Positions 11,134-49,628 of a stretch of 49,628 nt of DNA are shown here, in pieces. The DNA is from a phage: the sequence record PZ721903.1; one strand, 5' to 3'. The notes beneath the pieces are model-generated. The model saw only the letters and a list, made by a program, of their open reading frames with translations, had not been told where the DNA came from and searched no databases. Every line of letters begins with the position of its first letter. Within the stretch, counting starts at the first letter, position 1. The translations under genes and the position numbers were made by a program.

Positions 11134-11156
11134 GCCGCCGTTTGGCGGTTTTTTCG
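11134..11156 (+). terminator. hairpin + T-run after the G-T ORF
   Basis: ccgccgtttggcgg followed by tttttt, immediately before the tape-measure RBS. Confidence 0.55.
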
Positions 11157-11171
11157 TATATAGGGGGTTAT

Positions 11172-20132: not shown

Positions 20133-20438
20133 ATGGCGTACGGTATATCAACTTGGGACGCAAATGGCGTTTATAATAACTATGGAATTAAGCCTGTTAC
20201 GGTTGTTGGTTGGAACTTTTTGTCAGCAGGACAGAATTCAGCATCGTTCAGCTATCAAGTTCCTCCTGGTATGCATGTGAACTACGTTATAAGCCTTGAC
20301 AATGGCGCCATTAGTGGGCCTGGCAGGAAAATTATTGCTAGCGGTAATACGATAACAGTAACGCCAACAAACTCACCCGGGCCAAACGTGTACCCATCAT
20401 CAAACTGTTACTTAATAGCATATCTGGAGAATGATTAA
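20133..20438 (+). CDS. hypothetical tail-associated protein
   Basis: Start ATG 20133 after terminator+RBS module (ttttcttttGGAGGatttattATG). Confidence 0.45.
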   Translation: MAYGISTWDANGVYNNYGIKPVTVVGWNFLSAGQNSASFSYQVPPGMHVNYVISLDNGAISGPGRKIIASGNTITVTPTNSPGPNVYPSSNCYLIAYLEND

Positions 20439-22969: not shown

Positions 22970-23043
22970 ACGGCACAAATAGCTAAACAAATAATTAATG
23001 AGGTGTTATAATGCACCTCATACACCAATCAGGAGAAGTTAAG

Positions 23044-24152: not shown

Positions 24153-24180
24153 AAAAATCCCCGCAATGCGGGGATTTTAT
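24153..24180. terminator. bidirectional terminator between ssb (+) and tail fibre (-)
   Basis: aaaaatccccgcaatgcggggatttt: stem flanked by an A-run and a T-run. Confidence 0.65.
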
Positions 24181-25685
24181 CATTTGGACTTCAACATTTT
24201 TATCTCTTCTTGTAACTCTTCAACTTTCTTTATTGTATCCTGTAAAGCTCTCATAGTGTCAAGCAATAAAGGAGTTGTATCAAGCTCAAGCCTTTCAACT
24301 TTTGGCCCGTTTAGCTCGTGGCTCTCATACACCCTTCTCTTAACATATAGATTGTCGATCTCTTCTATCTCCTGAGCTATAACACCTCTCCTTACCCTTT
24401 CTTGCTCATCATCGTTAAATATAAAGTTCCTAAATCTCATTGATTTTATGTTGTTGTATGCAATGCTTGATTCATCATCCTTTATGCCGTGCTTTATATT
24501 TCTGTCAGATGCCGGAACCTGTTGGAAACTTCCAGCCCCTTGCGGTCCAGCGTAAGATATTTGCCCTGAAGCCATAAACCTGAAATGCATTTGCAGACCA
24601 ATATTGCCTGCTCCATCCCTATCTTGAGTGCCTACTGATATTTGTGCCCTGGGCCATTCAGGATTACCCGTAGTCATCATGCCAAATGCTACGCCGCCAA
24701 CGTATCCCTGACCTCTGGTGTCACACGATCCAGCAATAAGTGATTGATAGTTTTCAGCACCACTATCAGCGGTGTAAGCATTACCCTGGAAGCATGAAGC
24801 AGACCACATCTGGTTGTAACCCATAGATGTTTTCTGGCATAAAAACTGATTAGCTCTGAATCTATTGTTAGTCTCGAAGTAGTTTGCCCCCTCATAAAAT
24901 AATAAAGCCCCAGCATAACCATTATCGCTACGTTCTTTTCTGACGTAAATACCTGGCGTAGATATTCCATCAGGTGACATAATCATCAATGATGACAATA
25001 TGGACTGACTACCCCAGCTAGAACCGTCCCATGAATTCCTTCCTGCACCTATAGCGCCAGTGGTGTTAATAGCAAGAAAGTTAACAGCATCATTTTCACC
25101 TAACCCAATATTTTTTCTTGACTCTTTTTTATCCTCAAGACCAGCTAAATTGCCATCCTTAGTTAAAAGATTTTCAGCATTGATGCTGTTAGCTGCGTCT
25201 TTTGCTTCTTGAGCACTTACCGCAGCCGCATCTTTTGAGCTTACCGCATCGTCACGCGCTAATTCAGCCTGATTTTGCGCAGCTTGAGAATCAGATTTCG
25301 CCTGATTCACATCAGCAACTATTTGCTCAAGTTTATTCATATCAAGCTGATTTATCAGGTCTATAGCTGCCGCAATCTCAGTCTCTTTGCTTTGATAGTA
25401 TCGAAGAGTCTCGGCGACGTTTTGAGCTAATCCGTTAACGGTTAGAGAGTCATTAAGTAGGATCACATACTTACCGTCATCGGCAGTCTGACCATCAGTA
25501 GAGATAGCCTTTAATTCTGTATCACTAACGATATCGCTAATCACAGCTAGCTTAATTGGTTGCTCAAGGAACACGATAGTTGCACCTACGCGAATAAGAG
25601 CAAGCTGGTCTTTCCATTTTGTATCGGTTCCGTGAACCGTTCCGTCTGCATCCATTGATGCAGTACCGCGTCGATATAAAGCCAT
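24180..25685 (-). CDS. tail fibre with C-terminal intramolecular chaperone (peptidase S74-like)
   Basis: 501 aa; C-terminal region with SDRNIKHGIKD...RFRNFIF...coiled-coil tail typical of self-cleaving tail-fibre chaperone domains; RBS aaggag. Confidence 0.7.
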   Translation of the reverse strand: MALYRRGTASMDADGTVHGTDTKWKDQLALIRVGATIVFLEQPIKLAVISDIVSDTELKAISTDGQTADDGKYVILLNDSLTVNGLAQNVAETLRYYQSKETEIAAAIDLINQLDMNKLEQIVADVNQAKSDSQAAQNQAELARDDAVSSKDAAAVSAQEAKDAANSINAENLLTKDGNLAGLEDKKESRKNIGLGENDAVNFLAINTTGAIGAGRNSWDGSSWGSQSILSSLMIMSPDGISTPGIYVRKERSDNGYAGALLFYEGANYFETNNRFRANQFLCQKTSMGYNQMWSASCFQGNAYTADSGAENYQSLIAGSCDTRGQGYVGGVAFGMMTTGNPEWPRAQISVGTQDRDGAGNIGLQMHFRFMASGQISYAGPQGAGSFQQVPASDRNIKHGIKDDESSIAYNNIKSMRFRNFIFNDDEQERVRRGVIAQEIEEIDNLYVKRRVYESHELNGPKVERLELDTTPLLLDTMRALQDTIKKVEELQEEIKMLKSK

Positions 25686-27247: not shown

Positions 27248-27267
27248 ATAGCACTTTTTGCTAAAAA
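27248..27267 (+). promoter_or_regulatory. palindromic box + -10 (tattat) upstream of the helicase gene
   Basis: atagcactttttgctaaaaa, 22-nt spacer with inverted repeat aacgtttac/gtaaacgtt flanking tattat. Confidence 0.6.
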
Positions 27268-27328
27268 CGTTTACTGTATGCCGTGTATTATAGCGTAAAC
27301 GTTACAACGATTCAAAGGATTAATAGAC

Positions 27329-30541: not shown

Positions 30542-30789
30542 TGAACGAGAAAATGATTCCGGTTAAGTTAACTGATCAAGGTTTATGGCTGCTTTATCGA
30601 GCTACCTGCTGCGAAATCATGGAACAAAACGGATTGACGCAGGATGTTATTGGTTGCGATCTGTGGGAGTTCACTAGCTCTCTTGATATGTCTTTCGATG
30701 AGATAAAAAATGAATACATAGAGAATTGGCCTTCAATCATACAGAGAGACGTAGAGGAACTTAAAGCTGATATGATCGTTCAGCACTAA
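30538..30789 (+). CDS. hypothetical protein
   Basis: ATGA overlap with the Dam stop; RBS gaggaaagt; stop inside a palindromic box copy. Confidence 0.5.
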   Translation: MMNEKMIPVKLTDQGLWLLYRATCCEIMEQNGLTQDVIGCDLWEFTSSLDMSFDEIKNEYIENWPSIIQRDVEELKADMIVQH

Positions 30790-30800
30790 TTGCTAAAACT
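30783..30800 (+). promoter_or_regulatory. palindromic box copy (variant) + TATAGT
   Basis: agcactaattgctaaaac with TAA stop inside; hairpin cccggcgaaagtcggg then tatagt. Confidence 0.55.
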
Positions 30801-30855
30801 ACCCGGCGAAAGTCGGGTATAGTTATTTCATCGAGACGAAATGAGGAATCAAAAG

Positions 30856-31625: not shown

Positions 31626-32777
31626 ATGTCACAAGCTAAAATCACTACCGAACAACTTGTCGAAGAGCGCATGAACGGCCTAACACTTCGCGAGATCGCG
31701 GAAAAGTACGGTATGCACATTCGAACTGTTGAAGCTCGCCACGCAAAGTTGGCAAAAGAAGGTCACTTCCACGGTAACGAGCATGTTGCTAAGAACGTAC
31801 CGGAAGGATTCATGGTAAAAGGCACATCAACGATGATTCGCGGCGATGGGACCGAGGTGGTGCGCTGGGTTAAGACCGATCAGGACCGTGAGAAGATTGC
31901 AGCAATGATGGAAGCGGCGCGTATTGCATTCTGTGAAGATCTGCCGCGAGCAAAGCCAACTGAGCTACTAACCTCACAAGGGCTTACTACAGCGATGGGT
32001 AAGCTGGCACTCTATCCGGTATTCGATCTTCATATTGGCGCGCTTGCTCATAAGCATGAATGCGGAGAGAACTATTCTACCGATGTAGCGGAAAAAGTGC
32101 TGAGTGACTTCTTTAATTACGCGATCGATATTGCTCCGAACGCAGAGAAGGCTGTTCTGTTAATCGGCGGTGACTTCCTGCACTCTGACGGACTTGATGC
32201 AGTTACTCCGGCAAGCGGCCACGTTCTTGATCAGGATTCACGATATGCTAAATTGGTGCATGTAGCGATTCGATCGGTGCGACGAGCTATAGACAAAATG
32301 CTGACGAAACACAAAGAGGTCGAAGTTCAGGTTATCGAAGGAAACCACGACCAGGCCGGGATGATTTGGTTACGCGCAGCAATGGCAGCATACTATGAAG
32401 ACGAGCCGCGAGTATTCGTTGACGTCAGTCCTATGATTCTGCATAAGACTCGTTGGGGAAATACCTTGTTGGGATACACTCACGGGCACACTATGAAAAA
32501 GGCAGACACGCGACTTGCAGCGATGGCAGCAGATTTCCGATCGGATTTCGGCGAGAGCAAGTATGTGTATACTCATAGCGGGCACTGGCATCACCAGACA
32601 ATCACTGAGCACTCGCTAGGTATTGATGAAGTACACGGTCAGTTAGGCGCGAAAGATGCATACGCAGCACGCGGAGGGTGGCGCTCATATCGCCAGGCGG
32701 CGGTAATTGTTTACGATAAGCAGTTTGGTGAAATCGGTCGATTCATCTATCGTCCAGAAATGACAGGATCGCACTAA
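31626..32777 (+). CDS. calcineurin-like metallophosphoesterase with N-terminal HTH
   Basis: Metallophosphatase motifs DLHIG, GGDFLH, GNHD, HGH, GHWH; N-terminal LTLREIAEKYGM helix-turn-helix-like segment. Confidence 0.7.
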   Translation: MSQAKITTEQLVEERMNGLTLREIAEKYGMHIRTVEARHAKLAKEGHFHGNEHVAKNVPEGFMVKGTSTMIRGDGTEVVRWVKTDQDREKIAAMMEAARIAFCEDLPRAKPTELLTSQGLTTAMGKLALYPVFDLHIGALAHKHECGENYSTDVAEKVLSDFFNYAIDIAPNAEKAVLLIGGDFLHSDGLDAVTPASGHVLDQDSRYAKLVHVAIRSVRRAIDKMLTKHKEVEVQVIEGNHDQAGMIWLRAAMAAYYEDEPRVFVDVSPMILHKTRWGNTLLGYTHGHTMKKADTRLAAMAADFRSDFGESKYVYTHSGHWHHQTITEHSLGIDEVHGQLGAKDAYAARGGWRSYRQAAVIVYDKQFGEIGRFIYRPEMTGSH

Positions 32778-32788
32778 TTGATAAAAAC
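32770..32788 (+). promoter_or_regulatory. palindromic box copy (degenerate) + TATAGT
   Basis: cgcactaattgataaaaac, hairpin cccgaagggattcggg, tatagt, CATCGAAAACaaagaggat. Confidence 0.45.
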
Positions 32789-32840
32789 GCCCGAAGGGAT
32801 TCGGGTATAGTAACCACATCGAAAACAAAGAGGATATATC

Positions 32841-37132: not shown

Positions 37133-37195
37133 TGCGTTAGCTCCTGATTGGTTATCTTGAATAAGGTCACTTTATCAAATGACCTTACGGCAATA

Positions 37196-37212
37196 TTAAC
37201 AAATCGTGCTAT
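37196..37212 (-). promoter_or_regulatory. palindromic box copy, leftward cassette
   Basis: ttaacaaatcgtgctat; on the - strand followed by hairpin, TGaTAAAGT, CCAATCAGGAG and ATG 37132. Confidence 0.6.
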
Positions 37213-37653: not shown

Positions 37654-37714
37654 TTTTAATTCCTTTGTTTTGTTTGGTGTGTGAGTAATATACCTTACTC
37701 ACTATTTATTGTCT

Positions 37715-37731
37715 TTAGCAATTAGTGCTAT
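37715..37731 (-). promoter_or_regulatory. palindromic box copy, leftward
   Basis: ttagcaattagtgctat upstream (on the - strand) of 37429..37653. Confidence 0.55.
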
Positions 37732-37874: not shown

Positions 37875-38191
37875 TTTTTACCGTCCCAGGTTTGATACGC
37901 CGTCACAAGGTTAATGCTATGGTCAAACTCGTCAATGCTAAGCGAACCTATTCGAACCAGTTCTTTATCATGCTTAATATCAATCATCCGGCTATATGGA
38001 TGACCTGGCACGTATTTGAACAGTCGCTTGCTGTCAGCAATGTCGGCGTTGATTCCATAGAATCGGCCTACTGCCGCCTTCACGCGCTCCATGATGTTTT
38101 TTTCGTGGATTGCTGCCGCGTTATTAAGCGCCGCAACCGTGCTTCCGTTAATCTTCGGTGACTTCGTTGTGATTTTATAAGTGTGGTTCAT
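37871..38191 (-). CDS. hypothetical protein
   Basis: Start set at MNHTYK behind RBS gggggaa. Confidence 0.45.
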   Translation of the reverse strand: MNHTYKITTKSPKINGSTVAALNNAAAIHEKNIMERVKAAVGRFYGINADIADSKRLFKYVPGHPYSRMIDIKHDKELVRIGSLSIDEFDHSINLVTAYQTWDGKK

Positions 38192-38207
38192 TATTCCCCC
38201 TAACCAG

Positions 38208-38408
38208 TCAGGATAGCTTTCTCGCTTCATCAATGATAACAGGTTCAAGACGCTCAAGTCTAACGCGGAACGAGTTCATAAATCCTTCGTTGTTCTTCAG
38301 TAGTTCGAATGCGTCTGTAGCTTCAATGGCGCTATTCCCCATGTAGGCAATTACTTTTTTCTGAGTCTTACGTGAGATCGCCACTACGCGGTAAATATTA
38401 TCACTCAT
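38208..38408 (-). CDS. hypothetical protein
   Basis: Start at MSDNIY behind RBS aaagagg; 8-nt ATGAGTGA overlap with the upstream gene. Confidence 0.45.
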   Translation of the reverse strand: MSDNIYRVVAISRKTQKKVIAYMGNSAIEATDAFELLKNNEGFMNSFRVRLERLEPVIIDEARKLS

Positions 38409-38772
38409 ACAATGCCTCTTTAACACGATCCGCTACACATGAGTTAACGGTGATTGAATAGTTAGCCACGCCCCATAATGCAATATTGCCAAGCTCGGTA
38501 CGCATTGATGGATTGTTTAGCTGAATGATTGTCTCGCCAGTATCTTTATCGACGAAGCGAGACACGCCAGAATGGTCCACCACGCGCGTTACTCGGTTCA
38601 CGCACTCCATTGCATCACTTACACCATAATAGGCGGTTAGGGCGGCTCTCACGGCCTTCTCTTGCTTGTTGTAAATCTTGCGAGCGATGTTCTCGATCGC
38701 TACGCTTTCTTTCTCGTCAGTCTGGATTGCCGTGCTGGCTGAGAAGTCCAGATCTGTGAACTGCTTAAACAT
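38401..38772 (-). CDS. hypothetical protein
   Basis: Start at MFKQFT behind RBS gagga; complete cassette upstream. Confidence 0.5.
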   Translation of the reverse strand: MFKQFTDLDFSASTAIQTDEKESVAIENIARKIYNKQEKAVRAALTAYYGVSDAMECVNRVTRVVDHSGVSRFVDKDTGETIIQLNNPSMRTELGNIALWGVANYSITVNSCVADRVKEALYE

Positions 38773-38830
38773 GATTATTTCCTCGTTTGCTGCTGATGGG
38801 ATGACTATACCAGCCATCCCGGATGCGCGT

Positions 38831-38847
38831 TTAGCAAAAAGTGCTAT
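38831..38847 (-). promoter_or_regulatory. palindromic box copy, leftward cassette
   Basis: ttagcaaaaagtgctat; on the - strand followed by a hairpin around TGgTATAGT and RBS gagga. Confidence 0.6.
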
Positions 38848-39033
38848 TTAGAATTTTACTTCCTCAACAAGCTCAACCATTTTATAACCCAGGCGATATG
38901 AGTCGCCGAACAACAACAGACCCATAAATTCATCGTTGGTTATCGACTCCTTACCAACAGTTTTAAGTTCTCCGTTGTGAATCACAGTATCGCCGATCTT
39001 GATTTCTGATTTATGCACTAATTTCGTTTTCAT
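38848..39033 (-). CDS. hypothetical protein
   Basis: 61 aa ORF in operon context. Confidence 0.45.
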   Translation of the reverse strand: MKTKLVHKSEIKIGDTVIHNGELKTVGKESITNDEFMGLLLFGDSYRLGYKMVELVEEVKF

Positions 39034-39048
39034 TTGTTAGCCTGTTAA

Positions 39049-39234
39049 TTAAAAGAACGCTACATAGTTTGCAATACCTTTTGCATCGTCGTTAGGCATC
39101 GCCTTGACAGCCAGGTCATAACCAGCCTCTACCTTCTGCTTTGCTGATTCTTCGTTGTATCCCCAAATAACCAGGATTTTAACTACGTTTTCTTTGTTCA
39201 GAACTTTAAGGTATTTAGTGATGCGACGTGCCAT
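39049..39234 (-). CDS. hypothetical protein
   Basis: Start at MARRITK behind gaggaaaaacaaa; complete cassette upstream. Confidence 0.5.
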   Translation of the reverse strand: MARRITKYLKVLNKENVVKILVIWGYNEESAKQKVEAGYDLAVKAMPNDDAKGIANYVAFF

Positions 39235-39293
39235 TTTGTTTTTCCTCAATCTCGTTTCGATGAGGTAATTATGCCAAATCGCACCGATCGAGT

Positions 39294-39312
39294 TTTAACA
39301 AAAAGTGCTATT
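39294..39312 (-). promoter_or_regulatory. palindromic box copy, leftward cassette
   Basis: ttttaacaaaaagtgctat; contains the methyltransferase stop; on the - strand followed by cataat and CATCGAAACGAG. Confidence 0.6.
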
Positions 39313-39999
39313 TGCGATCGCTTTGAAAAATCCACGAGGAGATAAGGAACGTATCAGCTTCGTTTTGGCAGACTTGCCGCCCAGCTTGTTTTGCTGTGCA
39401 GAGTACCCGTCAGGCAGGTTTACAGGCTTCCTTTCTGGCATGACAAAGTCGTCCGAAGTCCAAAGACAAGTTTTCTTCGGGTAAGCATCGCGCGGCGCAA
39501 TATACATCGGGAACCAGGGGTGTGCGTCATTCTCAGGAAGATAGCCGCCATACTCCCAGGGATTGAAAGTGTGGTCAGCCTTTCGCCAGGCTGATGACAG
39601 GACGCTAACCGGATTCTCAATGATGTAAGTCACACCCAGGCTATCACCGATGTTCGCGGCAATCCGGGCGGTGGCAACAGCTTTCTCCTGGAATAGCGGA
39701 TCACGTTTACGCTTGCTGGCAAAGTGTCGAGCACCACTAACGGCCAGGTCAGTGCACGGCGGGAAGGCCATAATGAAATCCGGCTTGCCATACACACCCG
39801 CGATCGCATCACGTTCGAACGTTTCATCAATGAACACGTTCACATACTCAATGTTGGGATGCTCTACCCGGGCATTGTACTTTGCATAATCTCCGTGATC
39901 GGCTCCGTCAAAGTTGAAGCACATCACTTTATGACCTTGCTTTGCCAGTTCATGACCAGCCAGGCCCGAGCCGTCGAATAGTGACCAGATTAATTTCAT
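39295..39999 (-). CDS. DNA cytosine-5 methyltransferase-like protein
   Basis: Motif I-like FDGSG, PC motif FPPCTDLA and ENP motif in the expected order for C5-MTases; short (234 aa), so the target-recognition region is minimal. Confidence 0.5.
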   Translation of the reverse strand: MKLIWSLFDGSGLAGHELAKQGHKVMCFNFDGADHGDYAKYNARVEHPNIEYVNVFIDETFERDAIAGVYGKPDFIMAFPPCTDLAVSGARHFASKRKRDPLFQEKAVATARIAANIGDSLGVTYIIENPVSVLSSAWRKADHTFNPWEYGGYLPENDAHPWFPMYIAPRDAYPKKTCLWTSDDFVMPERKPVNLPDGYSAQQNKLGGKSAKTKLIRSLSPRGFFKAIANSTFC

Positions 40000-40208
40000 T
40001 TCGTTACCTCCTGGAAAACAGTTTGTCCGCTATTGGTCAGGAAGCGCCCGATCTTATTCATTGACCGGAACACGCCGATCTGATTCTGATGATTGTCAGT
40101 CGCGAAGTAACCGCCATCAATAAGGTAGATTTCATACACTGATTGATTCGTGAAGCTGTCAGTGCTGACGCTAACACATCGTACGGTACATTCAAATTCT
40201 GGTTCCAT
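39996..40208 (-). CDS. hypothetical protein (first gene of leftward early operon)
   Basis: Preceded by a cassette with CCAATCAGAGGA RBS; ATGA coupling to the next gene. Confidence 0.5.
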   Translation of the reverse strand: MEPEFECTVRCVSVSTDSFTNQSVYEIYLIDGGYFATDNHQNQIGVFRSMNKIGRFLTNSGQTVFQEVTK

Positions 40209-40268
40209 TGCCTGAGTCCTCTGATTGGTTGATGTGATGAATCATACCCTGCCGACCTGGCTGAGTCG

Positions 40269-40285
40269 TTAGCAAAAAATGCTAT
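40269..40285 (-). promoter_or_regulatory. palindromic box copy, leftward early promoter
   Basis: ttagcaaaaaatgctat; on the - strand followed by TATGATTCATCACATCAACCAATCAGAGGA and ATG 40208. Confidence 0.6.
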
Positions 40286-40476
40286 TCCAATAATTGCTCA
40301 TTATTCCATCAATAGCGGAATAGGTGGAATAATTCTGATTGCGATTGATTGCAAATGATGAAACGTGATTATTGCATGGTTTTCAACAGTTGGTTGATTT
40401 GTTGCTTAGATTGCAATGATTGTGAGAGGGGGGGGAATCTAGTGTTGCCCGGTTCGCCTGGTAATCATCTCCATTT

Positions 40477-40493
40477 TTAGCAAAAAGTGCTAT
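40477..40493 (-). promoter_or_regulatory. palindromic box copy, leftward, in control region 2
   Basis: ttagcaaaaagtgctat about 200 nt upstream of the previous copy; no ORF between them. Confidence 0.5.
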
Positions 40494-40896
40494 CGATTAC
40501 ACTTTACCTTGTCACAGATGTAATATTTGTCTAGAATCGCACTTGTGACAAAATTACACACTGTGACGCCTCTAAATATACATATAGATATATGTATCTA
40601 TATAATATATATAGTGTTTTCTTTATTTATATATATAGATAATTATATTGTAATAGTTGTGTATAGTTGTCTTACATTGTCTAGCGTACTGTTGGCATAT
40701 TTCTATCTGCATGTTTATATATACAGTACTTTTTTGAGAGCTATATATTTCTATAGTGACTCTAGACAGCTAGACAAATGTTACACAGCTTAATATCGGC
40801 TCGCAGTCATTGACAGCTCTGTATCGCACTGTCACAATGTCAATTGTTGACACATTATGACGCCATTTACACACGAATAGACAAAGAGGATATATT

Positions 40897-41412
40897 ATGA
40901 GCAATACCAATCAGGAATTAAAAATCACCGATATGATTCGCCTAACCTGCGACGCAATGTATCGCGACAAAGGCATGAGTGAGTTCTCTTTCGTGGCTGA
41001 TGATATGGCCCTGGAAGGCGCACGATTCTACTTCCGTGGCCAGGAGGTAAGCGATAGCGATCTTGAATCTGCCGCTGCCGGATGGGTGGACCAGAACCAG
41101 GGTGAGGTGGAGAAGCGATTCAAGTCTGCTTTCATTACGCCAATCATTACCCGGCACTTTTGCAAGTATGGCAAGGTGGCAAAGGTGAAGGTAGGCCGGA
41201 ATGACGCTGCAATCACAATGATAACGGTTATCGTTACCGACGAAGAGATTCCCGTGAAGAAGCGCCGCAGCCGGAAAAAAGTTAGCCTGGCCGACTGCCT
41301 GGATTCGTTTGATGTTGATGTTGGCAAGCTATCGGATAGCGAGTTAATGGTTCGCGACGTGAATGAGATCGTACGCCAGATGAAAGCACATATCGAAAAG
41401 TGCGGGCTGTAA
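40897..41412 (+). CDS. hypothetical early protein
   Basis: 171 aa, RBS aagagga; first gene of the rightward early operon. Confidence 0.55.
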   Translation: MSNTNQELKITDMIRLTCDAMYRDKGMSEFSFVADDMALEGARFYFRGQEVSDSDLESAAAGWVDQNQGEVEKRFKSAFITPIITRHFCKYGKVAKVKVGRNDAAITMITVIVTDEEIPVKKRRSRKKVSLADCLDSFDVDVGKLSDSELMVRDVNEIVRQMKAHIEKCGL

Positions 41413-41426
41413 CGCTGATAGGTGAA

Positions 41427-41445
41427 ATAGCACTTTTTGTTAAAG
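41427..41445 (+). promoter_or_regulatory. palindromic box + tattat
   Basis: atagcactttttgttaaag, hairpin cccggtcgagcggatcggg, tattat. Confidence 0.55.
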
Positions 41446-41502
41446 CCCGGTCGAGCGGATCGGGTATTATCTTCTCATTGACACGATACAGAGGAATCGA
41501 AG

Positions 41503-41699: not shown

Positions 41700-42170
41700 A
41701 TGGCGACAATTACCGTATTTCTTGCTAAAGATGAGCTTGATGGCGAAATGTCATTCTTCGCGTTTGAGCATAAAACCGGCTCGCACTGGCACACTTACAG
41801 CCATTACACGGTTATCTCAATCGAAGCGTACGACGGCGAACTGCTCACTGATAAACTGAGTAATTTCATTGAAGCCGTTAAAGCTAGCGGCGGCTGCGAG
41901 TGGAAGGAAGATCACGAAGTTATGCGAATGTTTGAGATGGTCAATCCGGTTCGCCTTGAGTCGTTCGAGCTTGATGCTAATGTGACTATCAAGGTGAGAA
42001 AGTCGGGTGAGTTATTGCCAGGGATGCGTGTACTGACTGGTTACTCTGGCCGTAAGGTGTGGCGCACTGTATCCAAGATTCGCCAGCGCTCGGCAACATG
42101 CTATAGCGTATTCTTTGATGATGGTTGGAATATGATGTCCGGTAGTGAGGTAAAGTATCTCACCAAATAG
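41700..42170 (+). CDS. hypothetical protein
   Basis: 156 aa; stop TAG lies in box copy 42167. Confidence 0.5.
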   Translation: MATITVFLAKDELDGEMSFFAFEHKTGSHWHTYSHYTVISIEAYDGELLTDKLSNFIEAVKASGGCEWKEDHEVMRMFEMVNPVRLESFELDANVTIKVRKSGELLPGMRVLTGYSGRKVWRTVSKIRQRSATCYSVFFDDGWNMMSGSEVKYLTK

Positions 42171-42186
42171 CACGAATTGTTAAAAC
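42167..42186 (+). promoter_or_regulatory. palindromic box + hairpin-embedded TATAGT
   Basis: atagcacgaattgttaaaac; 22 nt; TGcTATAGT inside ggggta...tacccc; CATCGAAACGA; CCAATCAGAGGAAT. Confidence 0.65.
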
Positions 42187-42248
42187 CTGATCGGGGTATC
42201 TTGCTATAGTTACCCCATCGAAACGAGATACCAATCAGAGGAATAACC

Positions 42249-43261: not shown

Positions 43262-43750
43262 ATGAAAATCAAATTAATTTGCACTGGCGGTTACAAGGGA
43301 TTTACCCGAGATCTGGAAGCGGACCCTATCGTGGTTGATGCGGTGAAGTGTGATTCCAGTACTGGAGGCTACCGTGTTAAGGTTGACGATCTGGTAAAAG
43401 CTGGCGTGTACGATCTTGATTATGGGCTTTCGGTTAGCCCGGTATTTGGTCCGGCCGACTTCAACGAGAAAGACGGAACGATGTTCTTTTTTGAGTGGGA
43501 AGTGCAAGCGAACGTCAAGCCTCGTAAGGTTCGACTTCTCAACAATGGCGGCTACCCGATGAGACCAGGTTATGAGAATCGCACGTTCCCAGTTATTGTG
43601 GACTTCACCGAAATCACTAACAAACTGGTCTACGTCAGCAATGAGCATTTCCAGGCTGTAGGATTCACTGGCGGTATGCATAAAGAAGCGCTGTGCTTCG
43701 TTCGAGAAGAAATGCACGGTTACTATTCTGAGTGCGAGTTAGTTTACTAA
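43262..43750 (+). CDS. hypothetical protein
   Basis: 162 aa; cassette upstream. Confidence 0.5.
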   Translation: MKIKLICTGGYKGFTRDLEADPIVVDAVKCDSSTGGYRVKVDDLVKAGVYDLDYGLSVSPVFGPADFNEKDGTMFFFEWEVQANVKPRKVRLLNNGGYPMRPGYENRTFPVIVDFTEITNKLVYVSNEHFQAVGFTGGMHKEALCFVREEMHGYYSECELVY

Positions 43751-43767
43751 GAACGAATTGTTAAAAG
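43748..43767 (+). promoter_or_regulatory. palindromic box copy (degenerate) + TGgTATAAT
   Basis: aagaacgaattgttaaaagg; TGgTATAAT within gggga...tcccc. Confidence 0.5.
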
Positions 43768-43821
43768 GGGATTTGGCCTGACTGGTATAATCCCCGCATA
43801 AACCACTAAGAGGAAAGCATC

Positions 43822-44328: not shown

Positions 44329-44477
44329 TGGCTGCGTGGGTCTTGATTATCTTGATGAGTACCGGTCCGGATCACGTATACATGGAAAGTCAGCAATCAT
44401 GCAACAAGGCTCGGGAGGTGATTTCAGAGAACAAGCCGTTCGGATACGAAGTAAAAACGATGTGCGTTAAACGATAG
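44328..44477 (+). CDS. small hypothetical protein (49 aa)
   Basis: Below track cutoff; TAATG overlap, RBS gaggtga; stop TAG in box copy 44474. Confidence 0.35.
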   Translation: MAAWVLIILMSTGPDHVYMESQQSCNKAREVISENKPFGYEVKTMCVKR

Positions 44478-44493
44478 CACGAATTGCTAAACC
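44474..44493 (+). promoter_or_regulatory. palindromic box + hairpin-embedded TATAGT
   Basis: atagcacgaattgctaaacc; TGaTATAGT within aaggcca...tggcctt; CCAATCAGAGGAAT. Confidence 0.65.
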
Positions 44494-44557
44494 TTCCGCA
44501 AGGCCATTTGATATAGTGGCCTTATTGAAGCAGAGCGACCAATCAGAGGAATCGGCT

Positions 44558-45824: not shown

Positions 45825-45935
45825 ATGCCAGACTTTTCTAACTGGAATAACGAGCCGCCATCATTTCAGGAGTTGCTATTCTGCCTCCTGGTCCTGACAT
45901 TATCTCTTAAGGGTGTTTTATGGCTACTATCATGA
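45825..45935 (+). CDS. small hydrophobic peptide (36 aa)
   Basis: Preceded by a terminator+RBS module (cccctttcttttGGAGAAAACACTATG) identical in type to those of the late operon. Confidence 0.3.
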   Translation: MPDFSNWNNEPPSFQELLFCLLVLTLSLKGVLWLLS

Positions 45936-46138
45936 CAGTAGAAGATGCAGCACGCGATGCAGTGGAAGGAATGCGCCCAAATACCTCCAGAATAGCACAC
46001 TACTACAAATCTGAGGTGTCGGCAGTGCAATTGGTCCACGAAATTTTAAGGCTCCCACAAGTCGATTCAGCGCGAGTAGTGACGTGCTTAAAAAATTATT
46101 TTTGCATCACTATTAAAACGAATAGCACGAATTGCTAA
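45932..46138 (+). CDS. hypothetical protein
   Basis: ATGA overlap with the preceding peptide; stop TAA inside box copy 46122. Confidence 0.4.
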   Translation: MTVEDAARDAVEGMRPNTSRIAHYYKSEVSAVQLVHEILRLPQVDSARVVTCLKNYFCITIKTNSTNC

Positions 46139-46141
46139 AAC
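46122..46141 (+). promoter_or_regulatory. palindromic box + TGaTAGAAT
   Basis: atagcacgaattgctaaaac; TGaTAGAAT within aaggg...ccctt; CCAATCAGAGGAAT before ATG 46206. Confidence 0.65.
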
Positions 46142-46205
46142 TTGCTCAAGGGTATTTGATAGAATGCCCTTCGTTGAGTTAAGCAACCAATCAGAGGAAT
46201 AAATC

Positions 46206-46736
46206 ATGGATAAAATTACCATTTGGGGCCAGACTGTCAACCTGTTTCTCGGCACGCGCCGAGTGGCAATCTTTGACTTTGACGGGACACTTAGCGATGG
46301 ATCTGGTCGACTTCACCTGCTGCCAACAAAGGATTTGCACTTGACTGAAAGCTGGTCTGAGTTTAACCGAGCGGCAATATTTGATAACCCAATCCAGAGC
46401 ACGATCGATGTGATGAACTCTATTTTTGCCGCTGGGTATCATGTGATCATTTTAACCGGGCGAAGTGATGAGGTGCGTTACGCATCTGAGTTATGGCTTA
46501 AGCATCACGGCGCTCGATATGATTACTTAGTCATGCGACCGCATACCGACAACCGCAAAGACACGGTAATGAAAGAAGAGGCAGTGCGCGCTATCGGCAT
46601 TGATAACATTCTTGCGGCTTGGGATGACTCAGTGAATATAATAAAAAAATTCAGAGATCTAGGGATAACCACATATCAGGTTTGTGAATATGCCTGTGAT
46701 AGTCGAGAGGATTTAAATAGTCATGGTGTCGATTGA
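46206..46736 (+). CDS. HAD-superfamily phosphatase
   Basis: Motif I AIFDFDGTL and ILTGR motif; 176 aa. Confidence 0.6.
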   Translation: MDKITIWGQTVNLFLGTRRVAIFDFDGTLSDGSGRLHLLPTKDLHLTESWSEFNRAAIFDNPIQSTIDVMNSIFAAGYHVIILTGRSDEVRYASELWLKHHGARYDYLVMRPHTDNRKDTVMKEEAVRAIGIDNILAAWDDSVNIIKKFRDLGITTYQVCEYACDSREDLNSHGVD

Positions 46737-47217
46737 TAACAAATCAATGGTAAGAGAGTTATTTACTTATTCTGACGGCGTTCTGTATTGGAAGGCCAAA
46801 TCATCTAAATACAGTAGAGCTAAAATAGGAGGCGCGGCAGGAAGCAAGGATAAAGACGGATACATAATAATCAGAGTAAGAAACGAAACTAGAGGCGCTC
46901 ACAGGCTTGTATGGATATACCATAATGGCAAGATACCTGATGGAATGGAGGTAGACCATATGGATGGAGACATAACAAACAATAGAATAGAAAACCTAAG
47001 ATTGGTAACGAGAACCATAAATAACAGGAATCAAAAAAAGAGATCTGATAACACAACCGGAGTATCCGGTGTAACTTTCATGAAAGATAGAGGAAAGTAT
47101 AGGGCGCAAGTTAGAAACAAGAGACTCGGGCAGTTCGACACAATAGAAGAGGCCGCCAAAGCAGTAAAGGATGAGCGGGATAGATTAGGTTTATTCACAA
47201 AAAGACACGGGGTGTAA
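46723..47217 (+). CDS. HNH homing endonuclease with AP2 DNA-binding domain
   Basis: HRLVWIYHNGKIP...DHMDGDITNNRIENLRLVTRTINNRN (HNH) followed by SGVSGVTFMKDRGKYRAQVRNKRLGQFDTIEEAAKA (AP2-like); AGA/AGG/ATA-rich codon usage unlike neighbours. Confidence 0.75.
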   Translation: MVSIDNKSMVRELFTYSDGVLYWKAKSSKYSRAKIGGAAGSKDKDGYIIIRVRNETRGAHRLVWIYHNGKIPDGMEVDHMDGDITNNRIENLRLVTRTINNRNQKKRSDNTTGVSGVTFMKDRGKYRAQVRNKRLGQFDTIEEAAKAVKDERDRLGLFTKRHGV

Positions 47218-47219
47218 AC

Positions 47220-47792
47220 ATGAAAACAGCTATCATTTTAAACGGCGCACCTGGTGCGGGAAAGGACACTATCGGATGCATCCTTGCTGACACTTACGAT
47301 CACGTAGCCTTGCGCAGCTTCAAAGCGCCAATGTTTGAGATTGCCAGGGCAATCCTGGGTGAAGCTAACTACGAGTATTTCATGTTCTTGTATGAGGACC
47401 GTCGATATAAAGAAGAGCCAGCATCAATCCTGAACGGTAAAAGCCCGCGCCAGTTTATGATCTGGATTAGCGAGGAAGTCATCAAGCCGCAGTTCGGAAA
47501 TCGCTTCTTCGGTATGCGAGCGGAAAGCAAGGTGAAAGAGTCGCACTCCCTTTCGGTATTTACTGATGGTGGATTCAAAGACGAAATCTTGCAGATGATT
47601 GAAGGTGATATCCAGGTCAAGCTATGTCGAATACATCGCAACGGTTGCAGCTTTGATAACGACAGCCGCGACTATATCTATCTTGACGACATGATCGGGG
47701 TTAACGGTTATCAGGAATGTGACTTCTTTTCTGTCGAAGGTCATCCAGAAATTACCGCTCAGCACATAGCCGCCACGTTCATCAATAAATAG
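47220..47792 (+). CDS. P-loop kinase, dNMP-kinase-like
   Basis: Walker A GAPGAGKDT and LNGKSP segment resembling T4 gp1-type deoxynucleotide monophosphate kinases. Confidence 0.55.
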   Translation: MKTAIILNGAPGAGKDTIGCILADTYDHVALRSFKAPMFEIARAILGEANYEYFMFLYEDRRYKEEPASILNGKSPRQFMIWISEEVIKPQFGNRFFGMRAESKVKESHSLSVFTDGGFKDEILQMIEGDIQVKLCRIHRNGCSFDNDSRDYIYLDDMIGVNGYQECDFFSVEGHPEITAQHIAATFINK

Positions 47793-47808
47793 CACGAATT
47801 GCTAAAAC
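47789..47808 (+). promoter_or_regulatory. palindromic box + TGaTATAGT
   Basis: atagcacgaattgctaaaac; -10 at 47827-47832 puts the palindrome centre (47797) near -42; CATCGACAACGA at the predicted transcript start. Confidence 0.65.
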
Positions 47809-47864
47809 GTCGATGGGGTGATTTGATATAGTTACCTCATCGACAACGAAGAGAGAAAATCTAA

Positions 47865-48074
47865 ATGACGGTATCAACTGATAAGTTTTTCACTTGCACT
47901 AAAACTTCTGAAGTATTCGAACTGGTTCATACTGATAATGGTGATTTCATGCATGACGGTTGCGACGTTTTCATTGAAGTGAAAGAAAGCGACTATGACG
48001 ACGGAGTTTATTACAGCCCGGCAGTTAACACGCAGTTTTTTACCCCGATCGAGGAAGATGGAGAAGAGGCATGA
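47865..48074 (+). CDS. hypothetical protein
   Basis: 69 aa acidic protein behind a complete cassette. Confidence 0.5.
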   Translation: MTVSTDKFFTCTKTSEVFELVHTDNGDFMHDGCDVFIEVKESDYDDGVYYSPAVNTQFFTPIEEDGEEA

Positions 48075-48430
48075 TTACGATTAACCTGTCAGAGAAGCAA
48101 GCTCGTGAAATCCTGGACACGATCGGCGACCAGTTACACATCAAGGGCGCTACCGCCGAACTTCTTAACCAGATCGAAAGGCAGCTTACCCCAGCATCAA
48201 CGAATCAAGCTGAGTTCGCAGCATGGAAGAGTGAACGCATCTTGCCAAATATCATCAAGGCATGGAAGCGCAAGCATAAAAAAGAAATCAACGTTGAGGA
48301 TTTGTTTACCGACGAATTAAGCCCTTCAAAGGTTGCTCAATATCAGTTGCGATACATGGAATCAGTTTGCAATCAGGTTTTAGGTGTTAATTTTCATTTT
48401 GGAGAGGTAAATAATGTTCGGATTAAGTGA
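48071..48430 (+). CDS. hypothetical protein
   Basis: 119 aa; ATGA coupling. Confidence 0.5.
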   Translation: MITINLSEKQAREILDTIGDQLHIKGATAELLNQIERQLTPASTNQAEFAAWKSERILPNIIKAWKRKHKKEINVEDLFTDELSPSKVAQYQLRYMESVCNQVLGVNFHFGEVNNVRIK

Positions 48431-48644
48431 AGCGGAATGGAACGTGGTAAAGCGCGCGGCGAAGGAATTAAATAAATTCGTCAGTGGCATGAAGAAAGAA
48501 GATCGGAAAAACGACAAGATCATGATTGACGTTATTTCTACTCACCACAAAAAGGTCGAATTACTCATCGATCGCTACAAATTTGTCTGGACTGCCGGGT
48601 ATATTGCCGGGCGCGTAGGTAACAAAGAAGGGGATTACGAATAA
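48414..48644 (+). CDS. hypothetical protein
   Basis: 76 aa ORF in operon. Confidence 0.45.
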   Translation: MFGLSEAEWNVVKRAAKELNKFVSGMKKEDRKNDKIMIDVISTHHKKVELLIDRYKFVWTAGYIAGRVGNKEGDYE

Positions 48645-48847
48645 TGGCTAATTTACCGAAGAAAGGAGATCAGGTTCGATGCATCACTTCACGTAATGGC
48701 GATGCTTTCTCAGCTGGGTGCTTGTATGACGTTGAAAAAGTCAGTAAAGCAAAGAGGCTCGTATATGTGTACGGCGACGATGGAAACCTGCATGAGATTA
48801 ATTACCCGCAGGATATGACTAAGGGTCAATTTGAAATTAATGATTGA
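48644..48847 (+). CDS. hypothetical protein
   Basis: 67 aa; TAATG overlap. Confidence 0.45.
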   Translation: MANLPKKGDQVRCITSRNGDAFSAGCLYDVEKVSKAKRLVYVYGDDGNLHEINYPQDMTKGQFEIND

Positions 48848-49008
48848 CCTACGTCCCTGAGCGGTGATAGTATTAATCCCGTAGACAAACTAGGCGCAAT
48901 GAAGCGCAACGCGTGAGACGATTCTCACACTTCCAGCTAACAAGCTCGGTTGCATAGTGGTTAAGCAACGCCGCAGACCCGTAAGCGGCAACAATTCAAG
49001 AGGATTGC

Positions 49009-49173
49009 ATGATGCAAAACACCAAAGACGAATCAGTAAAAATTGAAATTAAAGTAACTCGCAACGGTGAAACCACTCGTTATAAAAAACGATTAAATCC
49101 GGGAGAGGCTGTTATTGGTCGAATTGCTGGCGTTATGATTAAGGCGCAGGAAGATGAAGCGATTCAAGGTTAA
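49009..49173 (+). CDS. small hypothetical protein (54 aa)
   Basis: Below track cutoff; RBS aagagga before ATG 49009. Confidence 0.35.
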   Translation: MMQNTKDESVKIEIKVTRNGETTRYKKRLNPGEAVIGRIAGVMIKAQEDEAIQG

Positions 49174-49339
49174 ATTAATTATTCGAAAGATGGGGATGTT
49201 TTGCCAGTCGTGCAAACAATCTTTCGAAACAGAATTATCTGCAACCAGTCAGGCAGAAGCCATCACGAAAGCAAAAAAACTTTCCGGCGCTAACCTTGAC
49301 ACTCACAAAATAAATATTGAATTAATCAAGGAGATTTAA
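49154..49339 (+). CDS. hypothetical protein
   Basis: 61 aa, basic; RBS aggaag. Confidence 0.4.
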   Translation: MKRFKVKLIIRKMGMFCQSCKQSFETELSATSQAEAITKAKKLSGANLDTHKINIELIKEI

Positions 49340-49340
49340 C

Positions 49341-49568
49341 ATGACAATTTTTTTATTGATTATCGCTGGTGTCATTATTTTTGGTGCTGGTTTGTTTGCT
49401 GGCTTCGCACTTGTGGCGGCAGCAATTGCGATGGACGCGAAGGATAAAACTGGTGTATGGCTGACCTACTCACCTAAGAAGGACCAATGGGAGATGACTG
49501 GCGACCTTGCTCACTGCTACTCTAAAGCTCAGACCCACCCTAAAGGAATTAAGCGACTATTGTCGTGA
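49341..49568 (+). CDS. small membrane protein
   Basis: N-terminal TMD IFLLIIAGVIIFGAGLFAGFALVAAAIA; RBS aaggag; followed by terminator 49578-49600. Confidence 0.5.
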   Translation: MTIFLLIIAGVIIFGAGLFAGFALVAAAIAMDAKDKTGVWLTYSPKKDQWEMTGDLAHCYSKAQTHPKGIKRLLS

Positions 49569-49577
49569 TAAACACTA

Positions 49578-49620
49578 ACCCGCTTCGGCGGGTTTTTTTA
49601 TGCCTGCAATATGGTAAAAT
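49578..49620 (+). terminator. terminator followed by TGgTAAAAT extended -10-like box upstream of terminase
   Basis: acccgcttcggcgggt + T7, then atggtaaaat (49611-49620); junction box copy and terS RBS follow across the window end. Confidence 0.65.
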
Positions 49621-49628
49621 AGCACTAA
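49619..49628. promoter_or_regulatory. palindromic box copy spanning the window junction (continues at 1..10)
   Basis: atagcactaa at 49619-49628 joins atgttaaaca at 1-10 to give atagcactaaatgttaaaca, matching atagcacgaattgttaaaac. Confidence 0.6.

Follow-up and report, generated by a model that had tools for sequence, protein, structure and literature searches.

Phage T1 carries a gene, gp63, whose GenBank entry (YP_003881.1 / AAP49937.1) describes an HNH endonuclease with AP2 and HNH InterPro domains (IPR001471 cited) and which the annotation of MN153797 calls a "homing endonuclease." Searches of the literature turned up no work on the function of gp63 and no biochemical or genetic evidence of cleavage. 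The HNH endonuclease I-HmuI, to which we compare it below, is reportedly, according to the paper on its structure, encoded in a group I intron and equipped with C-terminal helical and helix-turn-helix DNA-binding modules, and enzymes of this type are nickases. In contrast, gp63 is a free-standing gene with a predicted AP2 domain for DNA binding. A class of HNH-AP2 homing endonucleases was reportedly set out by Magnani et al. in 2004 and by Wuitschick et al. in 2004; like gp63, its members join an HNH nuclease to an AP2 DNA-binding domain and are free-standing phage genes, although the examples come from other phage families and other loci. HNH-AP2 homing endonucleases have been counted in the T4-like phages RB49, JSE, and RB43 (PMC2993671).

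For phage T4, the available parts of two papers (PMC2330249, PMC2790892) describe SegB, SegF, SegG, and MobE as intron-less genes situated between conserved genes; in mixed infection, they are passed on preferentially, flanking markers are co-converted, and the resident allele is replaced. Unlike gp63, the Seg proteins belong to the GIY-YIG enzymes, and MobE, although of HNH type, belongs to another subfamily and has no AP2 domain; both cleavage and biased inheritance were shown by experiment for those enzymes, whereas homing by gp63 is read from sequence. In T1-like phages, HNH genes are placed sporadically, according to the available part of PMC13164509.

Here, we describe the gp63 locus in a stretch of phage DNA of 49,628 nucleotides (nt) (sequence record PZ721903.1; one strand, 5′ to 3′), which is referred to as the window herein. 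We put the probability at about three in four that gp63 is a free-standing homing endonuclease, consisting of an I-HmuI-like HNH_3 domain fused to AP2, that has spread by homing at the junction between a phosphatase and a kinase gene. As such, gp63 is an ordinary, already known element and has small weight as a discovery.

The window carries T1 gp63 between its T1 neighbors

The following three genes make up the locus.

46206..46736, plus strand: HAD-family 3′-phosphatase, equal to T1 gp64 (Pfam HAD_PNKP, 1.4e-16; PHROG 415, 2.5e-63; 98.9% amino acid identity to T1 ST64)
46723..47217, plus strand: predicted HNH-AP2 endonuclease, equal to T1 gp63 (ST63) (PHROG 99, 8e-61; 100% amino acid identity to T1 and JMPW2)
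47220..47792, plus strand: dNMP-kinase-like P-loop protein, equal to T1 gp62 (PHROG 139, 4.7e-46)

The gene at 46723-47217, with a product of 164 amino acids, is T1 gp63, an already known gene whose annotation in the T1 reference genome dates from 2004. Its open reading frame (ORF) overlaps the phosphatase ORF by 14 nt and ends 2 nt before the kinase, so that the ORF calls agree exactly with the coordinates, overlap, and gap given in the initial annotation. The T1 locus has the same gp64 and gp62 neighbors, the same 14-nt overlap, and the same 2-nt gap, and T1 and the window are 100% identical in nucleotide sequence across 46632-47219. The window differs from T1 in having a phiD2-2-type backbone without ST65 and a right flank that is 99.9% phiD2-2-like and only ∼95% T1-like. 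The phosphatase resembles the phosphatase domain of T4 Pnk without its kinase domain, and the kinase, which is named deoxynucleotide kinase in the T1 record, shares 100% amino acid identity with that of the endonuclease-free phage SH2.

The HNH ORF is a separate gene between phosphatase and kinase, outside any intron or intein, and an Rfam scan of the whole window returned no RNA family match. When a profile built from 51 homologues was run against all six-frame ORFs of the window, only 46723-47217 matched, and no other copies of the family were found. In the T1 genome, three places match the endonuclease. HNH proteins of the HK97 gp74 type are encoded by a conserved gene adjoining the terminase genes and are required for packaging; such a packaging cofactor was rejected for gp63 on position (∼2.4 kb and 8 ORFs upstream of the small terminase gene, which starts at window position 1), dispensability, and family (HNH_3).

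gp63 combines an intact HNH_3 domain with a predicted AP2/ERF-type fold

Two domains were delimited within the 164-amino-acid product.

46894..47028, plus strand: HNH_3 catalytic domain (PF13392), amino acids 58 to 102 (Pfam 78.9 bits against a cutoff of 24.8 bits; E value, 2.1e-22)
47056..47187, plus strand: predicted AP2/ERF-type DNA-binding domain, amino acids 112 to 155 (modelled secondary structure, Foldseek, and a weak Pfam AP2 match)

The match to PF13392 spans all 46 profile positions. In a sequence alignment, residues D78, H79, and N100 of gp63 (codons 46954-46959 for D78/H79 and 47020-47022 for N100) stand opposite I-HmuI D74, H75, and N96, of which we take D74/H75 to be the Asp-His general base and N96 to be the metal-binding Asn. 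Across the 51 homologues, D78 never varies, and conservation of H79 and N100 reaches at least 90%. I-HmuI, the HNH nicking endonuclease of Bacillus phage SPO1 (PDB 1U3E), which thus shares the Asp-His and Asn catalytic positions, was also the best match by sequence among solved structures (E value, 1.4e-6; gp63 residues 44 to 109), and it was the top Foldseek match (1u3e; E value, 2.4e-4; probability, 1.00; root mean square deviation [rmsd], 3.1 Å over 98 columns with 35% identity) of an AlphaFold (AF2) model of gp63 (pLDDT, 93.9), in which the nuclease is predicted to adopt the beta-beta-alpha-metal fold.

The Pfam AP2 profile (PF00847) matched residues 112 to 147 below its gathering score (21.3 against 33.3 bits; E value, 3.4e-4), and a precomputed PF00847 match exists for several gp63 homologues. 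The model predicts strands at 117 to 120, 125 to 130, and 133 to 138, followed by a helix at 141 to 155, and this part superposes on AtERF1 (1gcc; rmsd, 1.6 Å over 50 columns; 30% identity; TM[target], 0.60; probability, 0.99) and on WRINKLED1 (7wq5; rmsd, 1.4 Å), which, at the level of the predicted model, confirms an AP2/ERF fold for the C-terminal part of gp63. The combination of HNH and AP2 domains that had been proposed from the letters alone is therefore borne out, with HNH_3 above its gathering score and AP2 by fold match to 1gcc and 7wq5, its profile score being below the gathering score. The gene is under purifying selection, with dN/dS values of 0.19 against Eco_BIFF and 0.13 against L067, and of 0.13 to 0.2 across shallow and deep comparisons.

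Atypical codon usage is a trait of the nuclease lineage

The gene had been described as extremely rich in AGA/AGG and ATA codons that its neighbors avoid, and the codon counts agree: AGA/AGG account for 17 of 18 Arg codons (1 of 12 and 1 of 10 in the flanking genes) and ATA for 9 of 11 Ile codons (4 of 15 and 2 of 19), with Fisher P values against the rest of the genome of 2e-10 for Arg and 8e-7 for Ile. In synonymous usage, the gene is the most atypical of 74 ORFs (rank 1), ∼3.4 standard deviations from the mean. The GC content is 0.37 to 0.40 over 46600-47100, in comparison to 0.45 for the whole window. The atypical composition begins at ∼46632, inside the phosphatase gene and not at 46723; the 91-nt stretch from 46632 has a GC content of 0.33 and holds three-quarters of the ATA codons of the phosphatase gene and its sole AGA codon.

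The initial annotation took this codon usage as the signature of recent acquisition. Orthologues at 62 to 70% identity with saturated synonymous divergence are equally AGR-rich, so codon usage is no sign of recent arrival; judged from these alignments, it is a stable, long-lived trait of the nuclease lineage. Rare-codon usage alone is therefore unfit for dating the acquisition of such genes. The recent acquisition itself stands, on the marker pattern against phiD2-2 described below.

gp63 occurs sporadically at one junction in two genera

gp63 was present in 8 of 123 matching phage records, which represent three distinct phages (T1, JMPW2, and Eco_BIFF), and at 3 of 14 close loci in IMG/VR. 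It is missing from phiD2-2, the nearest relative of the window, and from most close relatives. Comparison with relatives thus shows the gene to be sporadic and not universal, as a recently acquired gene had been expected to be, with presence and absence alternating at one fixed locus among close genomes.

Orthologues with 62 to 70% amino acid identity to gp63 were found in the Nouzillyvirus-like phage TH21 and the metagenomic Nouzillyvirus-like sequences P0002 and P0005, and in TH21, L067, L068, and L069 the orthologue is in every case flanked by HAD_PNKP and the kinase. TH21, P0002, and P0005 share with the window the phosphatase-HNH-kinase order, a GAGAGG ribosome-binding site (RBS), a start codon within the SHGV codons, AGR-rich codons, and a recoded phosphatase 3′ end, although they belong to another genus and their flanking genes are just 48 to 67% identical. 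At 33 phosphatase-kinase intervals of distant Drexlerviridae, which measure 2 to 2,170 nt and contain assorted small ORFs, no gp63-like match was found.

Shigella phage vB_SsoS_008 (L056) contains a decayed copy of gp63, in which internal deletions remove the catalytic DH motif; we do not rely on this copy because the phosphatase and kinase genes are broken too, possibly owing to poor sequence quality. Phage 50EP was considered as a gp63 deletion relic and dropped, since the alignment consists of the shared phosphatase terminus alone and no HNH remnant. 50EP has a different HNH gene upstream of its phosphatase.

The cassette includes the phosphatase 3′ end and replaces a resident allele

The segment that accompanies the nuclease ORF begins within the phosphatase gene.

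46632..46722, plus strand: variant phosphatase 3′ end, candidate left arm of the mobile cassette (identity switch; GC content, 0.33; 3 ATA codons and 1 AGA codon)

At this left arm, identity to endonuclease-free Tunavirus phages falls from 84 to 94% to 58 to 60%, and identity to endonuclease-carrying Nouzillyvirus-like phages climbs from 54 to 59% to 66 to 73%; a corresponding switch of affinity in the phosphatase 3′ end is seen between TH21 and ESCO41. Across 46632-46733, carrier and non-carrier alleles differ at ∼40% of positions. The left arm contains the RBS of the endonuclease (GAGAGG at 46706-46711, as annotated for T1), and the ATG at 46723-46725 falls within the codons for His and Gly in the SHGV motif, which is conserved. 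From these switches in identity, the putative mobile unit is ∼0.6 kb in length (46632-47219) and is made up of the recoded last ∼100 nt of the phosphatase gene and the nuclease ORF.

gp63 and a conserved hydrophobic ORF of 36 amino acids were mutually exclusive in all 18 intact genomes compared, and the 19th, the decayed vB_SsoS_008, has neither. The junction of phosphatase and kinase is thus the correct locus, as the initial annotation had it, but the gene is no pure insert: because the foreign segment starts in the phosphatase gene, at ∼46632, and displaces its 3′ end and the small ORF, the event is an allelic replacement and not a clean insertion.

A T1-type tract surrounds gp63 in a phiD2-2-type genome

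A three-way comparison of markers among the window, T1, and phiD2-2 delimited two segments, the only ones in which the window switches to T1-type markers.

46250..47264, no strand: putative gene-conversion tract, T1-type within a phiD2-2-type genome (three-way marker table; mismatch maps)
45881..46011, no strand: detached upstream patch with 12 T1-type markers (three-way marker table)

phiD2-2 and the window are 99.9% identical over 25 kb and 99.92% identical on the right flank. Within 46250-47264, all informative markers but one are T1-type, and the edges of this tract of ∼1 kb lie between 46236 and 46250 on the left and between 47264 and 47285 on the right; phiD2-2-type markers at 46075-46236 separate it from the upstream patch. 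The T1-type markers that flank the cassette, at 46250-46616, 47255, and 47264, form a co-conversion footprint, a trace of the process rather than the process itself, and the pattern has the form of T4 Seg/MobE co-conversion as given in the available parts of the T4 papers. Among the window, T1, and JMPW2, there are no mismatches in 46539-47284. This identical tract ends 65 to 85 nt to the right of the gene, and the segments flanking it show 5 to 10% differences in pairs with JMPW2. Between the window and T1, the right flank differs by ∼5%, and the left flank is near-identical (5 differences in 429 nt).

The window therefore appears to have acquired gp63 recently, as a patch of ∼1 kb from a T1-like phage, in a backbone that is otherwise without the gene. 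The discontinuity of the tract would fit patchy mismatch repair and would equally fit chimeric assembly of a mixed lysate. A second divergent patch, at 38 to 41.5 kb, is phi2013-like and without relation to the HNH gene; a T1 origin was rejected for it. As T1-like phages recombine freely, a patch alone is no proof of nuclease-initiated repair.

Homing probably explains the locus better than recombination of a relic, domestication, or misassembly

The presence of both domains, the presence or absence of the gene in near-identical genomes, the shared tract, and the kept position all support the free-standing homing endonuclease that had been suggested from the sequence of the window. An unlikely alternative, though the strongest of those considered, is that gp63 is a passenger, an inactive relic of a homing endonuclease, and that its patchiness and the tract stem from homologous recombination of the ordinary kind when T1-like phages co-infect a cell. 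T1-like genomes are mosaics, the phi2013-like patch came from another donor without any HNH gene being involved, and the loss of the DH motif in vB_SsoS_008 would mean that decay occurs at the locus. A relic is difficult to reconcile with an intact ORF that has kept every catalytic residue at dN/dS values of 0.13 to 0.2 in shallow and deep comparisons alike, with a perfectly identical tract in three genomes that ends 65 to 85 nt to the right of the gene, or with the occurrence of one lineage at one junction in two genera, each time with a recoded phosphatase end. The identical tract and the junction shared by two genera with their own recoded ends favor site-specific spread over random patches. 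T1-like phages encode an Erf-type recombinase and an exonuclease.

Domestication of the nuclease, either in a module for nucleotide salvage or host DNA breakdown together with the phosphatase and kinase or as a weapon against co-infecting phages, is improbable. The three overlapping or abutting ORFs do form one tight unit with a promoter-like repeat at both ends, and degradation of the host genome by T1-like phages is listed as an open question (PMC11447400). Against this, the gene is dispensable, being absent from most close relatives, among them phiD2-2 with its 99.9% identity; the protein is of the classic site-specific I-HmuI type with a sequence-specific AP2 domain; its rare codons suggest low expression; and interference with competitors would be in keeping with homing and hardly amounts to a separate mechanism. 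Least probable of all is that the mosaic arose in assembly, as a chimera of phiD2-2-like and T1-like phages in a mixed lysate, an alternative that concerns the tract evidence only and leaves the nature of gp63 untouched: T1 is a notorious laboratory contaminant according to the available part of PMC13164509, and the T1/phiD2-2/T1 alternation of markers on a scale of 100 to 400 nt is what a graph assembler could yield, but elsewhere there is no alternation with T1 markers (∼25 scattered differences in ∼43 kb), the ST65 gene directly upstream in T1 is missing from the window, and JMPW2 and T1 independently show an identical cassette with diverged flanks.

If gp63 is a homing endonuclease, the event would take place in a cell that a carrier and a non-carrier phage have both infected. 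The AP2 domain would bind the non-carrier allele at the phosphatase/kinase junction, which gp63 would nick or cut, and the break would be repaired by recombination with the carrier genome as the template. Repair would copy the cassette together with flanking DNA of variable length and delete the resident allele, namely the phosphatase tail and the 36-amino-acid hydrophobic ORF. Cleavage by gp63, the position of cleavage, and a break, not ordinary recombination, as the origin of the tract are what this model would add to the patterns described above. Immunity of the carrier allele would follow from its phosphatase 3′ end, which differs at ∼40% of positions.

More tentatively, and at somewhat less than even odds, the window and phiD2-2 may be a natural near-isogenic pair of carrier and non-carrier produced by one recent homing event of T1 gp63, in which the left arm, by recoding the last ∼33 codons of the phosphatase, would supply the translation start of the nuclease, truncate the conserved Cys/His tail of the phosphatase, and abolish the site that the nuclease itself recognizes. 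If this is true, the target site would lie at the 3′ end of the phosphatase gene in non-carriers, and T1 gp63 would be the first homing endonuclease of the T1 family, and among very few of the HNH-AP2 class, for which both the site and the co-conversion tract are defined. phiD2-2 and the window offer a ready donor/recipient pair, with mapped tract ends, for HNH-AP2 homing and for site reading by AP2. Phylogeny and taxonomy of Tunavirus call for caution at this locus because ∼1 kb around it has a history unlike that of the rest of the genome.

Intergenic repeats bracket the three-gene unit

Copies of an intergenic repeat lie on both sides of the trio.

46122..46200, plus strand: Drexlerviridae intergenic repeat (ATAGCACGAATTGCTAAA), followed by a −10-like box in a hairpin and then an RBS (repeat family; architecture)
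47789..47843, plus strand: next copy of the repeat, with a hairpin (−23 kcal/mol; z, −6.7), overlapping the kinase stop codon and closing the three-gene unit

The repeat, which has been described for TLS and T1 with no function assigned (PMC11447400), occurs in 18 copies, in comparison to 0.68 expected. From its architecture, the copy at 46122-46200 probably provides a transcription signal in front of the phosphatase, HNH, and kinase genes. Scans of the locus for sigma-70 promoters and for terminators returned no match better than expected by chance. RNAalifold did not recover the hairpin of the repeat because its register varies between copies; single-sequence folds recovered it.

The nuclease gene and its neighbors

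The window phage is a T1-like coliphage (Tunavirus, Drexlerviridae), and the locus consists of three closely packed open reading frames (ORFs):

46206-46736, + strand, HAD 3'-phosphatase, 176 aa (Pfam HAD_PNKP, 1.4e-16; PHROG 415, 2.5e-63)
46723-47217, + strand, HNH-AP2 endonuclease, 164 aa (Pfam HNH_3; gp63 of T1)
47220-47792, + strand, dNMP-kinase-like P-loop protein, 190 aa (PHROG 139, 4.7e-46)

The phosphatase is stand-alone and of the T4 Pnk phosphatase-domain type. The 14-nt overlap with the phosphatase gene and the 2-nt gap to the kinase gene described in the initial annotation are exact on these ORF coordinates. The HNH-AP2 element is an already known gene, T1 gp63 (ST63); its product is 100% identical to the T1 and JMPW2 proteins and 94.5% identical to the Eco_BIFF homologue. 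The T1 record AY216660 lists InterPro HNH and AP2/ERF domains for gp63 and notes similarity to T7 gp3.8, and record MN153797 names it a homing endonuclease. HNH-AP2 proteins are an established endonuclease class (PMC2993671), and a 2026 paper on the T1-like phage KanT1 mentions "occasional repositioning of HNH nucleases" among T1, phi2013, and KanT1 (PMC13164509). A literature search for a functional study of gp63 found none.

The HNH_3 match reaches 78.9 bits (E = 2.1e-22), and by sequence the top relative of solved structure is I-HmuI, an intron endonuclease of SPO1 (1U3E; E = 1.4e-6), whose D74/H75/N96 align opposite gp63 D78/H79/N100. Fifty-three homologues were collected; an alignment of 51 sequences shows no variation at D78 and ≥90% conservation of H79 and N100. 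The AlphaFold model from this alignment is confident (pLDDT 93.9). Its N-terminal part resembles 1u3e (E = 2.4e-4), and the AP2 domains of AtERF1 (1gcc; rmsd 1.6 Å over 50 columns) and WRINKLED1 (7wq5) can be superposed on its C-terminal unit of three strands and a helix. Both predicted domains are therefore real, although the Pfam AP2 match is weak (21.3 bits versus a gathering score of 33.3), and AP2 membership is based on the modeled fold.

Codon usage

Comparison with the genome bore out the reported richness in AGA/AGG (17 of 18 Arg codons; Fisher P = 2e-10 against the rest of the genome) and ATA (9 of 11 Ile codons; P = 8e-7). A leave-one-out score of synonymous usage places the HNH ORF as the most atypical of 74 ORFs, ∼3.4 standard deviations from the mean. 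The atypical composition (GC 0.33) starts at ∼46632, upstream of the HNH ORF and inside the phosphatase gene, a part that holds 3/4 of that gene's ATA codons and its sole AGA. All gp63 orthologues share the AGR-rich, low-GC3 usage next to genes with ordinary codons, and synonymous sites are saturated between Tunavirus gp63 and its 62 to 70% identical orthologues. Because such diverged orthologues have it too, the bias is a stable trait of the nuclease lineage and, on this comparison, is not evidence of recent arrival. The dN/dS of gp63 (0.13 to 0.20) indicates purifying selection on the protein.

Two other AGR/ATA-rich ORFs, at 20438-21127 (+; membrane-associated "moron" protein, PHROG 425; AGR 7/9, ATA 16/21) and 24180-25685 (−; tail-fibre protein, PHROG 1980; AGR 19/25, ATA 16/33), belong to frequently horizontally swapped classes.

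Extent of the cassette and its alternative allele

Compared with non-carrier Tunavirus phages (lacking the HNH gene at this junction), the phosphatase gene is 84 to 94% identical in its first 426 nt and 58 to 60% in its last 102 nt; at the same boundary, identity to carrier Nouzillyvirus-like phages rises from 54 to 59% to 66 to 73%. An equivalent switch separates TH21 from ESCO41 (84 to 87%, then 64%). From these affinity switches in both genera, the final ∼100 nt of the phosphatase gene are therefore part of the cassette (46632-47219). This piece includes the GAGAGG ribosome-binding site annotated for T1, and the HNH start codon is formed by the codons for His and Gly in the conserved SHGV motif; in non-carrier alleles, no GAGG is present at that position. 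Carrier phosphatases stop directly after SHGV, and non-carrier ones are often 27 aa longer, with a Cys/His pattern (CNH...CIKC and CEH...CKKC) that is kept across genera and may form a small zinc-binding motif. Such tails (L071:4938-5018, EVCNHEPSEPLPPFGDKICIKCKELLK; L074:2280-2364, EKVCEHEFSDPLPPHGVRQCKKCNLVSGK; L-numbers denote compared phage loci) are absent from HNH-carrying and some short non-carrier alleles.

The 2.4-kb locus matched 123 phage records, of which only those of T1, JMPW2, and Eco_BIFF have the HNH gene; in IMG/VR, 3 of 14 close loci do. Orthologues occur in TH21 (Nouzillyvirus) and three metagenomic contigs, all four between a HAD_PNKP gene and a kinase gene; the related Nouzillyvirus ESCO41 lacks the gene. 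In none of the 18 intact genomes compared does the HNH gene occur together with a conserved 36-aa hydrophobic ORF, so that the locus exists as two alternative alleles. A 19th genome, vB_SsoS_008 (L056), has neither, only a decayed HNH copy.

The 36-aa ORF (VNLYEFIAAHPVLTVIILLIINHTIINVAKLFLGRY; L002:2514-2624, L071:5015-5126) lies between phosphatase and kinase in every non-carrier Tunavirus (94 to 100% amino acid identity) and is gone wherever the cassette is present, including the window. It is annotated as 42 aa in SH2 and unannotated in several records; a PHROG match was sought and none found. The apparent gp63 remnant at this locus in Shigella phage vB_SsoS_008 (L005:2585-2880) keeps GAHRLVWIY, ENLRLVT, NNRNQKKRSDNTTGVS, and DERDRLGLFTKRH, but the catalytic DH motif and the AP2 core are missing; sequence errors are possible, because the adjoining phosphatase and kinase genes are frameshifted as well. 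The Nouzillyvirus vB_EcoM_50EP has another HNH gene (150 aa; L075:1753-2205) directly upstream of the phosphatase gene, matching gp63 locally over only 29 aa; nuclease genes thus lie on either side of the phosphatase gene in different phages. ST65 (148 aa, unknown function, PHROG 10642), at T1 locus L001:1897-2343 (between window 46152 and 46203), is carried by T1, JMPW2, Eco_BIFF, and most relatives and is absent from the window, phiD2-2, FCWL1, SH2, and locus L021, independently of the HNH gene.

A conversion tract around gp63

The window, T1, and JMPW2 show 0 mismatches over 46539-47284, and the flanks differ by up to 10% (phosphatase 5' part, 43/429 versus JMPW2; kinase, 29 to 32/573). The near-isogenic phage phiD2-2, which has the non-carrier allele, is 99.9% identical to the window over 25 kb and 99.92% over 47217-49628.

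Marker types of the window in a three-way table (window, phiD2-2, T1)
up to 45789: phiD2-2-type
45881-46011: T1-type, 12 markers
46075-46236: phiD2-2-type, 13 markers, including lack of ST65
46250-46616: T1-type, 38/39 markers
46632-47219 (cassette): identical to T1
47255 and 47264: T1-type
47285 onward: phiD2-2-type, 39/39 markers

These markers outline a conversion tract of ∼1 kb around the HNH gene, long leftward and ≤65 nt rightward. The claim of recent acquisition stands on the identical tract and the phiD2-2 marker pattern, which date the arrival in this genome as recent, and not on codon usage, which had been taken as its sign. A useful by-product is a mapped natural donor/recipient pair (window carrier, phiD2-2 non-carrier).

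A second, larger divergence from phiD2-2 at 38000-41500 (∼270 mismatches, ∼92.5% identity) is 98% identical to phi2013, annotated there with a site-specific DNA methylase and hypothetical genes; it marks a separate recombination event with another donor. A smaller patch lies at 10500-11500 (13 mismatches).

Judged from sequence, gp63 is probably (roughly 0.75) a free-standing homing endonuclease that is still active or was so until very recently. It would nick or cut the phosphatase/kinase junction of non-carriers, and recombinational repair would then copy its gene in. The HNH-AP2 observation holds, and its homing interpretation is supported, with refinements, by sporadic distribution, tract, and site fidelity. 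That gp63 is inactive, a relic passed on through ordinary recombination, is unlikely, even with the unrelated phi2013-like patch at 38 to 41.5 kb in its favor. We give less credence still to a domesticated nuclease acting together with neighbor genes, and least to a chimeric assembly from a mixed lysate, which would bear on the tract evidence only. A packaging-cofactor HNH type is ruled out by family, position, and dispensability.

An intergenic repeat with promoter-like spacing

The intergenic repeat (a)TAGCAC(G/T)AATTGCTAAA has 18 copies with ≤3 mismatches in the window (0.68 expected), always oriented along transcription. This repeat of 21 nt has already been described in TLS and T1, its function listed as an open question (PMC11447400). 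Copies include the following:

46122-46200 and 47789-47843, beside the locus
44474-44552, 42167-42237, 43748-43818, 32768-32838, 30780-30850, 27248-27318, 22970-23040, and others
38775-38847, 37660-37731, and 37140-37212, − strand

A TATAGT/TATAAT-like hexamer begins 19 to 22 nt past the motif in ∼11 of 18 copies (exactly 21 nt in 9), a spacing that puts the TAGCA-N5-TGCTA dyad at about −42, which resembles the class-II activator arrangement. Neither this spacing nor the hairpin described next is covered in the consulted section of that source. In 12 copies, the 20 nt between motif and hexamer, together with the hexamer, form a hairpin (MFE z −2.5 to −6.8), the sequence of which differs from copy to copy.
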